From Shigella phage vb_GEC_SH_GT, in the sequence record OR887633: a stretch of DNA of 64,000 nucleotides; one strand, 5' to 3'. Under the pieces are notes generated by a model. That model saw only the letters and a list, made by a program, of their open reading frames with translations, searched no databases and had not been told where the DNA came from. Shown piece after piece: positions 11,850 to 15,656 of the stretch; within the stretch, counting starts at the first letter, position 1; the number at the start of each line of letters is the position of its first letter. Both the position numbers and the translations under genes were made by a program.

Positions 11850-14800
11850 ATGGCTACTTTAAAACAAATACAATTTAAAAGAAGCAAAACCGCAGGTGCA
11901 CGTCCTGCTGCTTCAGTATTAGCCGAAGGTGAATTGGCTATAAACTTAAAAGATAGAACAATTTTTACTAAAGATGATTCAGGAAATATCATTGACTTAA
12001 GCATTTCCGCTGGTGGTAATATCAGTGGAAATGTAACTATTGATGGAACTTTACGCGTCAATGGACCAATAAACAATTTTGGAAATTTTTCCACAAGTGG
12101 CCAGATTACCGCTGGTAGTAGTATTTCAGCTCAAGTTTTTAGAGCATTGCAAGGTTCGTTTTATACAAGAGCTTCAGCCGGTGAAACAGCAAATGCCCAT
12201 TTATGGTTTGAAAATGCCGATGGCACTGAACGTGGCGTTATATATGCTCGTCCTCAAACTACAACTGCCGGTGAAATACGCCTTAGGGTTAGACAAGGAA
12301 CAGGAAGCACTACCAATAGTGAATTCTATTTCCGCTCTATAAATGGAGGCGAATTTCAGGCTAACCGTATTTTAGCTTCGGATGCATTAGTAACAAAACG
12401 CATTGCGGTTGATACTGTTATTCACGATGCCAAAACGTTTGGACAATATGATTCTCACTCTTTGGTCAACTATGTTTATCCTGGAACAGGTGAAACAAAC
12501 GGAATCAATTACCTTCGCAAATTCCGTGCTAAATCTGGTGGTACAATTTATCATGAATTAGCTTCTGCGCAAACCGGAAAAAGTGATGAACTTTCTTGGT
12601 GGACTGGTAATACAGCGGTTAATAAACAAATGGGCCTTCGCAATGATGGATCTTTAGTATTACGACGTTCACTTGCAATTGGTACAATTACAACAGATGA
12701 AAACATCAATAACTACGGTTCCACTGGAGCAATGGGTGAATGTTATATAGTTATTGGTGATGCATCAACAGGTTTATCATACAAAAAAACTGGGGTATAT
12801 GACTTAGTTGCTAGTGGTCTTTCTGTAGCATCTATTACTCCTGATAGTTTCCGTAGTACTCGTAAAGCATTATTTGGACGTTCAGAAGACCAAGGTGGTA
12901 CGTGGCTTCTTCCTGGTCAGAACGCAGCTCTTCTTTCAGTTCGTACTGAAGTTGACCAAAATAATAACGGAGATGGTCAGACACATATTGGCTATAATAG
13001 TAATGGTAAATTTTATCATTATTTTAGAGGCAGAGGAAGAATGGCCATTGGAATGGCCGAAGGACTTATTGTTGAACCAGGAATTTTAGATATTAAAACT
13101 AGTTCAAATACATTAAGTTTGCGTGCTGATGGTACCGTCGCTTCTGTTCAAACATTAAAGCTTAATAATGGATTATATTTTAATAGTGATGGAACTAACG
13201 CTTCTCTAATTTTTAAAGCAGCTTCAGGTATTGATGGTACTAAACAGATACTTTGGGAAGGTGGTACTCGTGCTGGGCAGAATAAGAGCTATGTAGCTGT
13301 TAAAGCATGGGGTAATTCATTTAACGCATCTGGCGATCGTAATCGTGAAACGGTTTTTGAAGTAGCTGATGGGCAAGGATATTATTTTTATTCACAGCGT
13401 GTGGCTCCAAGTGGCTCTGAAACTACTGGGCCTGTTGTAACCCAGTTCAATGGACAAGTTAATGCTAGAGGAAGTATTATTACTGACGGAAGTTTTAAAG
13501 TTAATGGATTAAGCACTTTAGTCGGTAATGTTACTATGTCTAATGGTTTGTTTGTCCAAGGTGGTTCTTCTATTACTGGACAGGTAAAAATTGGTGGAAC
13601 GGCTGATGCATTAAGAATTTGGAATGCTGAATACGGTGCTATTTTCCGCCGTTCAGAAGCGTCATTACATATTATCCCTACTCCTAAAGATGCCGGTGAA
13701 AGCGGTGGAATAAGTAATCTCCGCCCACTTAGTATTAGCCTTAATAATGGTATGGTGCAAATGCGTCATTCCGTTACATTAGGTGATGATGGCGCAGGCG
13801 GTAATATGGTGACGGTTGATAATGATTCTAAAGTTATGGTAATGACGACTAATAGCCGTATTAGTCCTAACTTCCGTATGCAAATTGGACAGTCGTCTTA
13901 TATTGATGTGGAATGTACTGATGCTGTGAGACCTGCTGGAGCCGGTTCTTTTGCTTCACAGAATAACGAAAACGTTCGCGCTCCGTTCTATATGAATATT
14001 GATAGAACAGATACAAGCACTTATGTTCCTATTGTGAAACAAAGATACGTTCAAAATAATAGTTGCTATTCTATTGGTACTTTAATTAATGGTGGTAACT
14101 TTAGAGTTCATTATCATGAAGGCGGTGACGGCGTTTCTACTGGTGCTATTATAAAGGATCTTGGATGGGAATTTAATAAAAACGGTGATTTTTATTCTCC
14201 TGGTAAATTAGGCGCTGGAAATATTAGAATAGGTACTGATGGTAATATTACTGGCGGAACTGGTAACTTTGCTAACTTGAACACAACTATCGAATCATTA
14301 AAAACCGATATTGTTTCAAGTTATCCTATTGGAGCTCCTATTCCATGGCCTACAGATACTCCTCCTAATGGTTACGCTATTATGGAAGGACAGACTTTTG
14401 ATAAGTCTGCATACCCAAAATTGGCTATAGCTTACCCATCTGGAGTAATTCCTGATATGCGCGGGCAAACTATCAAAGGTAAACCAAGCGGTCGTGCTGT
14501 GTTAAGTGCAGAAGCTGATGGTGTTAAGGCTCATAACCATAGTGCTTCAGCATCTAATACTGATTTAGGTACTAAAACTACATCAAGCTTTGATTATGGC
14601 ACTAAGACGACAAGTAGCTTTGATTATGGCACTAAGACTAGCAATACCACAGGTAACCACTCTCATACTGTAAGCGGTACTACGAGTTCTGCTGGTGCAC
14701 ACCAACATGCGCGCTCAGGTCCTCAGATACAAGCCGGCATACCCAATAACATATTCTATGACGGATATAATAGTGTAGGTGCAAACGCCAACGCTAAATT

Positions 14801-15077
14801 CACTGGAACCGTGAACGGTGCTACTGCAGGGTCGAATATAGCCAAAACTTCTTCAGACGGTGCTCATACTCATACTTGGTCTGGTACTACAAGCACTACA
14901 GGTAACCATGCTCACACAGTAGGTATTGGTGCTCATACCCATACTGTAGGTATCGGTGCTCATACCCACACGGTAGCAATTGGCTCGCATGGTCATACTA
15001 TCACTGTAAATAGTACAGGTAATACAGAAAACACGGTTAAAAACATTGCTTTTAACTATATCGTTCGTTTAGCATAA
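11850..15077 (+). CDS. 37: long tail fibre distal subunit / receptor-binding adhesin gp37
   Basis: 1075-aa ORF; C-terminal His-x-His boxes (GNHSHT, GAHTHT, GSHGHT); segment homologous to gp34 (WGNxF...TVFEV...YFYSQR). Confidence 0.9.
14568..14640 (+). repeat. in-frame 30-bp tandem repeat encoding [10 protein letters not shown] x2 plus partial third copy
   Basis: units 14568-14597 and 14598-14627 differ at 7 synonymous positions. Confidence 0.85.
14919..14999 (+). repeat. in-frame 27-bp tandem repeat x3 encoding His-box units VGIGAHTHT / VGIGAHTHT / VAIGSHGHT
   Basis: units 14919-14945, 14946-14972, 14973-14999; first two differ by 3 synonymous nt. Confidence 0.85.
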
Positions 15078-15107
15078 GGAGAGGGGCTTCGGCCCCTTCT
15101 AAATATG
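15077..15107 (+). promoter_or_regulatory. gene 38 translation initiation region with hairpin between SD and AUG
   Basis: AAGGAG at 15077-15082, GGGGC-TTCG-GCCCC hairpin 15084-15097, ATG at 15105; 22-nt linear SD-AUG spacing. Confidence 0.5.
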
Positions 15108-15656
15108 AAAATATATCATTATTATTTTGACACTAAAGAATTTTACAAAGAAGAAAATTACAAACCGGTTAAAGGCCTCGGTCTTCCTGCTCATTCAACA
15201 ATTAAAAAACCTTTAGAACCTAAAGAAGGATATGCAGTTGTATTTGATGAACGTACTCAGGATTGGATTTATGAAGAAGACCATCGCGGAAAACGAGCAT
15301 GGACTTTTAATAAAGAAGAAATTTTTATAAGTGAAATTGGAAGCCCGGTTGGTATAACTTTTGATGAGCCCGGCGAATTTGATATATGGACTGATGACGG
15401 TTGGAAAGAAGACGAAACATATAAGCGAGTTTTAATTCGTAATAGAAAAATTGAAGAATTATATAAAGAGTTCCAAGTTTTAAATAATATGATTGAAGCT
15501 TCTGTCGCCAATAAAAAGGAAAAATTTTATTATAAAAACCTTAAGCGGTTCTTTGCTCTTTTAGAAAAGCATGAGCATTTAGGTGGTGAATTCCCTTCAT
15601 GGCCTGAAAAAGAACGGAAACCTTGGTATAAGCGTTTATTCAAGCATTACGTATAA
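15105..15656 (+). CDS. 38: tail fibre assembly/adhesin chaperone gp38 (T4-type, 183 aa)
   Basis: 183-aa ORF immediately after 37. Confidence 0.8.
   Translation: MKIYHYYFDTKEFYKEENYKPVKGLGLPAHSTIKKPLEPKEGYAVVFDERTQDWIYEEDHRGKRAWTFNKEEIFISEIGSPVGITFDEPGEFDIWTDDGWKEDETYKRVLIRNRKIEELYKEFQVLNNMIEASVANKKEKFYYKNLKRFFALLEKHEHLGGEFPSWPEKERKPWYKRLFKHYV

Follow-up and report, generated by a model that had tools for sequence, protein, structure and literature searches.

Matched tandem repeats in the gp37 adhesin of Shigella phage vb_GEC_SH_GT belong to a known T4-type allele with a probable extra rung in the needle stem

The C-terminal part of the gene 37 product of Shigella phage vb_GEC_SH_GT contains two arrays of short, in-frame tandem repeats, which raises the question of whether these repeats govern the choice of host, as had been proposed from the DNA alone, or serve another part of the adhesin. 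The window analyzed here is a 64,000-nucleotide stretch of record OR887633, with ~95% nucleotide identity to teqdroes-group Tequatrovirus genomes. Its tail fiber genes have the order g34-g35-g36-g37-g38-t, as in T4, with open reading frames of 1289, 371, 221, 1075, 183, and 218 amino acids (aa), respectively. The 1075-aa product, taken from the open reading frame list and its translation, is a T4-type gp37 that matches the PHROG 295 tail fiber family (E = 4e-113) and is 71% identical in amino acids to T4 gp37 overall. The gene immediately downstream encodes a T4-type gp38 chaperone (181 of 183 residues, or 99%, identical to T4 gp38; PHROG 105, tail fiber assembly, E = 3.6e-45) and not a T2/T6-type gp38 adhesin. 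In a phmmer search, gp37 residues 798 to 1075 aligned with chain residues 2 to 242 of PDB 2XGF (E = 1.4e-94), the T4 gp37 receptor-binding tip of Bartual et al. 2010, and this match supports the view that the repeats lie in the receptor-binding C-terminal part of the protein. A collar domain is also present (Pfam PF07484, E = 2.7e-11, 43.7 bits versus a cutoff of 24). The same Pfam search of vb_GEC_SH_GT gp37 gave no match to the phage tail fiber repeat PF03335 at E ≤ 0.01; a precomputed PF03335 match is found on many gp37 homologues.

Tandem Repeats Finder reported two arrays, one with a 30-bp period at positions 14571 to 14640 (2.3 copies, score 105) and the other with a 27-bp period at positions 14913 to 14976 (2.4 copies, score 100). 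As the original prediction had it, the 30-bp unit is present as two full copies that encode an identical peptide (A1 and A2; 14568 to 14627), followed by a partial unit, GTKTS. The second array had been described as three copies of VGIGAHTHT; it does consist of tandem 27-bp His boxes, but only two of them are identical (B1 and B2; 14919 to 14972), and the third, B3, reads VAIGSHGHT, with 6 of 9 residues identical to B2 and 11 of 27 nucleotides different. The periodic run in fact comprises four His boxes, with STTGNHAHT (14892 to 14918) upstream at the same 9-aa spacing, and the whole protein has eight His-X-His motifs, at residues 895, 937, 951, 1006, 1020, 1029, 1038, and 1047. Between A1 and A2, 6 of 30 nucleotides are changed, including a TCA/AGT serine codon switch; between B1 and B2, 3 of 27 are. 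All 9 of these differences are synonymous, so the peptides are indeed identical despite divergence of the DNA, and Monte-Carlo simulation gave chance probabilities of an unchanged peptide of 3e-5 for the A copies (6 random substitutions) and 0.015 for the B copies (3 substitutions). A search for other features beneath the repeats gave only antisense open reading frames, the longest of them 47 aa at most, and promoter-like matches at the chance rate; nothing resembling a terminator was found. The features of the region are collected in Table 1.

Table 1. Features of gene 37 and its surroundings in vb_GEC_SH_GT, in window coordinates
Feature	Position	Strand	Basis or remark
Gene 37, distal long tail fiber subunit and C-terminal adhesin	11850..15077	+	Open reading frame, translation, synteny, T4 identity
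Collar domain, aa 828-875	14331..14474	+	PF07484; aligns to 2XGF
First His-X-His site, H895/H897, outgoing strand, adjoining the collar	14532..14540	+	Equals T4 H883/H885
Unit A1, 10 residues, outgoing strand	14568..14597	+	Single copy in T4
Unit A2, 10 residues, extra copy relative to T4	14598..14627	+	6 synonymous differences from A1
Partial A unit GTKTS, running into the second His-X-His site	14628..14642	+	Translation
Second and third His-X-His sites, outgoing strand, H937/H939 and H951/H953	14658..14708	+	Motif scan
Tip (head), aa 954-1005, between outgoing and returning strands	14709..14864	+	Aligned against T4 and 2XGF
Fourth His-X-His site, H1006/H1008, returning strand	14865..14873	+	Motif scan
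His box B0, STTGNHAHT, opening the run of four at 9-aa spacing	14892..14918	+	
His box B1, VGIGAHTHT	14919..14945	+	
His box B2, VGIGAHTHT; T4 has a single unit for B1 and B2	14946..14972	+	Differs from B1 at 3 positions, all synonymous
His box B3, VAIGSHGHT, diverged copy	14973..14999	+	
Conserved C-terminal strand returning into the collar, and stop codon	15000..15077	+	100% identical to T4
Gene 38, T4-type tail fiber assembly chaperone, 183 aa	15105..15656	+	T4 gp38 identity, PHROG 105

The T4 gene 37 product is 1026 aa long (NC_000866), and the vb_GEC_SH_GT protein is longer, as predicted. However, the repeats account for only 19 of the 49 surplus residues; 18 others lie in the tip, which is shorter by that number in T4 and dissimilar in sequence, 11 lie in a shaft insertion (aa 637 to 647), and small indels contribute a net 1. 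The two proteins have homologous collar, needle, and tip regions, and their last 45 residues are identical. Counting units in the alignments, we found that vb_GEC_SH_GT has 10 more residues in the outgoing array (A2) and 9 more in the returning array (one His box). T4 thus has one 10-residue unit, three terminal His boxes, and seven His-X-His motifs, compared to two, four, and eight in vb_GEC_SH_GT. The original prediction had named the same repeat number and sequence in reference T4 gp37 as the observation that would count against it; with each array one unit shorter in T4, this is not what we found. The His-X-His sites common to both proteins are iron-binding in T4. The single T4 His box is equal to the 5' portion of B1 fused with the 3' portion of B2.

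To judge by its sequence, vb_GEC_SH_GT carries a TuIb/Bas40-type gp37 allele that is widespread, already sequenced, and not new. Its last 208 residues are identical to those of the BASEL phages FelixPlatter (Bas40) at 205 positions and AndreasVesalius (Bas42) at 207, and to those of TuIb gp37 (GenBank X55191; Montag, Hashemolhosseini and Henning 1990) at 203. All three relatives have nearly the same sequence here, with two 10-residue units (the second ending in FNY in Bas40), four His boxes at 9-aa spacing, and the same tip, and they have in common with vb_GEC_SH_GT the synonymous differences between copies, with few substitutions otherwise. More broadly, 112 phage records have matches spanning 80% or more of positions 14240 to 15077, and more than 50 of the phage records listed align over this interval as a single gapless piece. 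The N-terminal part of vb_GEC_SH_GT gp37 (~aa 60 to 200) is closer to T4 than to Bas42, which makes the gene as a whole a different mosaic.

These comparisons did not back the proposal that the repeats are a likely host-range determinant: the units lie in the stem and are conserved, and T4 and Bas40 both use OmpC. The case for the repeats themselves setting the receptor or host, whether by how many His-box and GTK units there are or by what these units encode, includes a 1996 study by Tetart et al. that, going by its title, reportedly connects the duplication of a small domain of the adhesin with an expanded T4 host range. So far as that source indicates, those laboratory duplications were likewise tandem, in frame, and located in the adhesin-encoding 3' region of gene 37; they arose under selection and their copies would be identical, whereas the vb_GEC_SH_GT copies are old, synonymously diverged, and matched on both strands of the needle. 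The T4 receptor area of residues 907 to 996, quoted from Montag 1990 (PMC9659904), also overlaps the inner ends of the arrays, and the natural copy number is polymorphic, from 0 to 3 units. Nevertheless, one-unit T4 and two-unit Bas40, whose infection is experimentally OmpC-dependent (PMC8594841), use the same receptor, and the receptors of two-unit TuIb are given as OmpC/LamB (PMC9659904). In T4, the residues found by alanine scanning to be critical for the receptor lie in the tip, where the receptor contacts map to approximately residues 932 to 965, the range also given for the specificity region (PMC6957217; PMC9659904). Across 159 homologous modules whose tips differ greatly or are unrelated, few segments are as well conserved as the A and B units, one tip family is found with different rung numbers, and the allele is common and long since sequenced (TuIb, X55191). 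We therefore consider control of receptor or host by the repeats themselves to be quite unlikely. The tip of vb_GEC_SH_GT gp37 is likely the receptor-contacting part, and because this tip is identical to that of OmpC-dependent Bas40, with the 205/208 identity noted above, the protein is expected to recognize OmpC.

The reading that we consider probable is that vb_GEC_SH_GT has a TuIb/Bas40-type allele with an old, matched extra rung in the needle, and that receptor choice lies with the tip and not with the repeats. As in T4 2XGF, the C-terminal 278 residues would form a collar, a six-stranded antiparallel needle, and a tip, with each chain going out to the tip and then back. The 10-residue GTKxxSxFDY units of the outgoing strand would lie level with the 9-residue xxIGxHxHx boxes of the returning strand, and each His box, taken over the three chains, would hold one metal ion; a rung of the stem would then pair a single outgoing unit with a single returning His box. 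The extra rung relative to T4 would be A2 plus one of B1 and B2, raising the number of His-X-His sites from 7 to 8 and lengthening the stem by ~2.5 to 3 nm. It would have originated by a long-ago tandem duplication in each array, with purifying selection keeping the peptide and selection also keeping the copy numbers of the two arrays equal, and the choice of receptor (OmpC by homology) would be made by the tip between them. Because the extra outgoing unit is matched by an extra returning His box, the needle stem is probably longer than that of T4 by one iron-binding layer.

The placement of the two arrays at equal height comes from T4, in which the domain boundary pairs residue 882 with 1009, contacts join G921 to F970 and G964 to H929, and domain D10 takes in residues 1010 to 1026 (PMC6957217). 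These pairs give residue-number sums of ~1891 to 1893, which by interpolation places the unit at residues 895 to 904 beside residues 987 to 996, and the latter fall inside the His boxes at 984 to 1001. The unequal length of outgoing units (10 residues) and returning units (9) counts against this packing, since it demands a one-residue shift of the register at every rung. An AlphaFold2 single-chain model of residues 798 to 1075, built with a 61-sequence alignment, was too poor to give the register (pLDDT 52, pTM 0.20), so the packing proposed here rests on interpolation from the T4 contacts in PMC6957217; a PDB search found no two-rung needle structure, with only 2XGF matching the C-terminal module. 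We infer side-by-side packing, an eighth metal site, added length, and selection against mismatched stems in this gp37.

To ask whether the two arrays vary together, we took a census of distinct homologous modules in viral contigs, a protein database, and bacterial genomes (159 modules; ~2,500 homologues detected) and compared the spacing between the first and second HxH motifs with the length of the terminal run of HxH motifs at 9-aa spacing. The (spacing, run) classes were (22,2) in 5 modules, (32,3) in 54, (31,3) in 1, (42,4) in 86, and (52,5) in 10, and the number of 10-aa units (0 to 3) predicted the number of terminal His boxes (2 to 5) in 156 of the 159 modules (Spearman 0.94). Matches of 768 nt (L006 to L008 and L092 to L101), which we take to be lambda Stf, have two GTK units and the boxes VGIGAHQHP and VVIGAHAHS. 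The lambda side tail fiber Stf resembles vb_GEC_SH_GT in having two units of the 10-residue type and a terminal run of four His boxes. It and the enterobacterial prophage members of the T4/lambda receptor-binding protein family (PMC9659904) carry the same C-terminal module, at ~60 to 66% identity to that of vb_GEC_SH_GT, while the tips, receptors, and N-terminal shafts of the lambda Stf family are different.

Matched copy numbers could instead reflect only shared ancestry or cassette exchange, with the arrays traveling with the tip and no structural coupling between them. The arrays are ~290 nt apart on either side of an exchangeable tip, the genes are mosaic, and counts over related sequences are not independent. 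However, unequal crossovers within repeats should often produce mismatches, and the sole intact-looking mismatch among the 159 modules was that of L005 (IMGVR_UViG_3300030021_000020), a metagenome contig with two A units and three His boxes; since it appears intact, matching may not be obligatory. On a rough tree of the tip domain, in genes that recombine frequently, we counted at least 27 changes in spacing, 28 in run length, and 29 joint changes, and this number, barely above that for either array alone, shows that both arrays change on the same branches. In addition, modules paired by a nearly identical tip (P0060/P0072 and P0061/P0098) are set apart by exactly one unit in the outgoing array and one in the returning array, and the T4 register sets the arrays at equal stem height. 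Ancestry or exchange as the whole explanation thus seems to us very improbable.

The age of the extra rung bears on a further alternative, a currently active slippage or contingency locus that would make the fibers phase-variable by frequent changes in copy number. A recent duplication of the laboratory host-range kind should leave identical or near-identical copies that are absent from close relatives, but the copies differ at 6/30 and 3/27 nucleotides and are found in TuIb, Bas40, Bas42, and ECO07P1. The synonymous signature (A2 containing AAGACGACAAGTAGC; B1 containing CATACT versus B2 containing ATC and CACACG) also occurs in these four phages, so the duplication is old and, as the original prediction held, the copies are not fresh slippage products. 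Copies at the same position in different phages were closer than copies at different positions inside one phage, with mean differences of 2.7 for A1-A1 versus 6.1 for A1-A2, and of 2.6 for B1-B1 versus 4.4 for B1-B2. Short, tandem, in-frame repeats do favor slippage or unequal recombination, the single T4 His box looks like a fusion of B1 and B2, and occasional recent conversion or reduplication is suggested by L004 (VR25-like), in which A1 equals A2 at 30 of 30 nucleotides, and by phage 212, in which B1 and B2 are 1 nucleotide apart. Yet the A copies have diverged at 20% of their positions and the B copies at 11%, which reduces slippage, and this divergence, the same divergent copies in phages of different records and isolation sources, and exactly equal length in >50 independent genome records leave an active locus with hardly any likelihood. 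An assembly artifact was ruled out by the same length and sequence in many independent records.

For vb_GEC_SH_GT itself these findings carry little weight, since the allele is known and OmpC can be read from near-identical characterized phages. For T4/lambda-type tail fiber tips in general, they suggest an engineering rule, namely, that the lengths of both strands should be changed together; the arrays, varying in step, predict one further metal site per rung, and the four natural needle lengths offer a series for testing stem length against adsorption. Arrays kept equal by selection would be comparable to compensatory changes in an RNA stem. We advance only tentatively, as a rather unlikely generalization, that the GTKxxSxFDY unit and the His box are the two halves of a quantized rung of the T4/lambda needle, added 0 to 3 times and matched by selection, with the rung number tuning host range. 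Stem length may affect host range, and if this proposal is true, the number of rungs would set the reach of the tip through the LPS/O-antigen layer, so that host range would be tuned independently of tip sequence.

Both repeat arrays lie in one ORF of 1075 aa, and the ORFs around it match T4 genes 34, 35, 36, 37, 38, and t in order and size. The downstream neighbor encodes a 183-aa protein that is identical to the T4 gp38 chaperone at 181 of 183 positions. From this T4-like gene order and near-T4 chaperone, we identified the ORF as a T4-type gene 37, in which the C terminus of gp37 itself is the adhesin; the same chaperone match led us to reject the T2/T6 type, where that role falls to gp38. 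Over its first 25 kb, the window shares ~95% identity with Tequatrovirus genomes of the teqdroes group. The gp37 protein is a mosaic, with aa ~60 to 200 T4-like and strongly unlike phage AndreasVesalius (Bas42) and aa ~480 to the end near-identical to Bas42, and the best single phage record covers at most ~82% of gene 37 (megablast). For gp37 aa 798 to 1075 (window 14241-15074), Collar was the sole Pfam domain reported, and the phage tail fibre repeat PF03335, which is on record for many close homologues, did not reach an E value of 0.01. Genes 37 and 38 are separated, stop codon to start codon, by a 27-nt spacer that contains a GGGGC-UUCG-GCCCC hairpin (-15.6 kcal/mol; z = -2.9) adjoining an AAGGAG ribosome-binding sequence; because no T-run follows the hairpin, this is not a terminator-like site.

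Positions of gene 37, its repeat units, and neighboring features in the window
Feature	Position	Description
Gene 37	11850..15077 (+)	contains both arrays
Mosaic part of gp37	11850-13300	aa ~60-480; comparison with T4 and Bas42
Shaft insertion	13758-13790	gp37 aa 637-647; [11 protein letters not shown]
A1	14568-14597	in frame; encodes [10 protein letters not shown]
A2	14598-14627	in frame; same peptide as A1, [10 protein letters not shown], then GTKTS
Unit before B1	14892-14918	STTGNHAHT; His-X-His at the same 9-aa spacing
B1	14919-14945	in frame; encodes VGIGAHTHT
B2	14946-14972	in frame; encodes VGIGAHTHT
Unit after B2	14973-14999	VAIGSHGHT; peptide differs from B1/B2
Hairpin	15080-15100	gene 37/38 spacer
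Gene 38	15105-15656	gp38 chaperone

Tandem Repeats Finder reported a 30-bp array of 2.3 copies at 14571-14640 and a 27-bp array of 2.4 copies at 14913-14976. The original prediction had the repeat anatomy mostly right, but the VGIGAHTHT box that it counted three times is identical in two copies only, the third being VAIGSHGHT. Its claim that adjacent copies diverge only synonymously held, as A1 and A2 differ at 6 of 30 nt, B1 and B2 differ at 3 of 27 nt, and all nine differences are synonymous. In simulations, this all-synonymous outcome was improbable for random changes (3e-5 for A and 0.015 for B).

The C-terminal 278 aa of gp37 match PDB 2XGF, the solved T4 tip (E = 1.4e-94). The same repeat number and sequence are not present in T4: in protein and DNA alignments, T4 has one 10-aa unit and one VGIGAHTHT box, whereas the window has two of each, and His-X-His motifs number seven in T4 and eight in the window. 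The 49-aa excess over T4 gp37 (1026 aa) comprises 10 aa from A2, 9 from one His box, 11 from the shaft insertion, which is absent from T4 and common to Bas42, 18 from a longer tip, and a net gain of 1 through small indels. The lone VGIGAHTHT box of T4 combines the 5' portion of B1 with the 3' portion of B2, a chimera that fits a deletion by unequal exchange and an ancestral single copy alike.

The T4 needle is described, in a passage of PMC9659904 citing Bartual 2010, as six-stranded and antiparallel, with each chain running out to the tip and then back. In T4, domain D10 comprises residues 811-881 and 1010-1026, D11 comprises residues 882-1009, G921 contacts F970, G964 contacts H929, and seven irons are each held by one His-X-His motif (PMC6957217). 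The i+j sums of three T4 anchors, the 882/1009 domain boundary and the two contacts, are 1891, 1891, and 1893, a nearly linear register, and interpolation from these anchors places the T4 unit 895-904 beside 987-996, inside His boxes 984-1001. From this register, the outgoing 10-aa units and returning 9-aa His boxes would stand at equal stem height, and by analogy we infer that the two arrays lie side by side in the window protein. A sequence search of the PDB copy returned no two-rung needle structure, and a single-chain AlphaFold2 model was too poor for use.

From ~2,500 detected homologues, we sampled 159 distinct C-terminal modules (sources: 80 viral contigs, 120 database proteins, 80 bacterial-genome loci, and 11 phage records) and measured in each the spacing of the first to second His-X-His motif (22 + 10n aa, where n is the number of 10-aa units) and the terminal run of such motifs at 9-aa spacing. 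The run equaled n + 2 in 156 of 159 modules (Spearman 0.94), with (spacing, run) values of (22,2) in 5 modules, (32,3) in 54, (31,3) in 1, (42,4) in 86, and (52,5) in 10. A rough neighbor-joining tree built on the tip region requires a minimum of 27 spacing changes, 28 run changes, and only 29 changes of the pair, so both arrays change together on the same branches. Two pairs of modules with nearly the same tip (P0060/P0072 and P0061/P0098) are exactly one unit apart in both arrays. Crossovers within the conserved repeats would be expected to produce mismatches, yet these are rare, which argues for selection that holds the two strands at equal length.

Among the three misfits, L160 (66,2) has degenerate motifs and L129 (52,4), a Candidatus Erwinia dacicola module, has lost one His box to a 2-aa deletion. 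The sole intact mismatch, on a metagenome contig (L005:1501-2307, IMGVR_UViG_3300030021_000020; 42,3), has two GTK units and three terminal His boxes, and its lone VGIGAHTHT is the same B1-5'/B2-3' chimera as in T4. This module is either a genuine product of unequal exchange or the result of a repeat that collapsed during assembly.

Bacterial-genome loci L092-L101 and L145 are 768-nt matches, ~63% identical to the query, that read like lambda Stf in assemblies labelled Chromatium, Pseudomonas, Shewanella, Leeuwenhoekiella, Neobacillus, Paenibacillus, Kitasatospora, and others; several of these matches sit on ~48.4- to 48.5-kb contigs at roughly 1x coverage, and they look like phage lambda DNA contamination. 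The insect symbiont Candidatus Erwinia dacicola carries several three-rung tail-fibre modules (L120, L121, L129, L140, and L163), and the destroyed His box of L129 suggests that these are decaying prophage genes.

TuIb, Bas42, Bas40, and ECO07P1 carry, at matching positions, the synonymous differences that distinguish A1 from A2 and B1 from B2. Among 11 two-copy phages, the mean difference was 2.7 for A1-A1 between phages versus 6.1 for A1-A2 within a phage, and likewise 2.6 for B1-B1 versus 4.4 for B1-B2; therefore, both duplications are older than the split of these phages. The array layout of lambda Stf is the same as that of the window. Homogenisation is occasional, with B1 and B2 only 1 nt apart in phage 212. 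In the VR25-like L004 (L004:1501-2334, IMGVR_UViG_2706795401_000001, a 170,822-bp phage genome), unlike the window, both 10-aa units are identical at 30 of 30 nt, which points to a recent event in that lineage, either gene conversion or re-duplication.

The feature is real but ordinary, and the allele is a known one that had already been sequenced. Window 14240-15077 is 99.8% identical to Bas42 and aligns in one gapless piece to more than 50 phage records among those listed, including X55191 (TuIb gene 37), and 112 phage records span 80% or more of this region. The last 208 aa are identical at 207 positions to Bas42, at 205 to FelixPlatter (Bas40), which has exactly the same tip, and at 203 to TuIb. 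FelixPlatter requires OmpC (PMC8594841), and the listed receptors are OmpC for T4 and OmpC/LamB for TuIb (PMC9659904); because of this homology to OmpC-using phages, the window phage should use OmpC.

The repeats had been proposed as a likely host-range determinant, a reading that the analysis did not support. The T4 receptor-critical residues map to the tip (PMC6957217; PMC9659904). In this family the tip varies, whereas the repeat units rank with the most conserved segments. Specificity is determined by the tip that separates the two arrays. The best reading of the matched repeats is a structural rung, in which one outgoing unit and one returning His box would form one step of the stem and supply one metal site. 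The window allele would be T4 plus one rung, its stem longer by ~9 to 10 residues of extended chain, or roughly 2.5 to 3 nm. The rung reading does not explain why the unit lengths are unequal, with 10 aa outgoing and 9 aa returning. The purely synonymous divergence of the copies would follow from purifying selection on core-packing peptides. The array-matching rule is a tidy by-product of this analysis and is worth a structural check.
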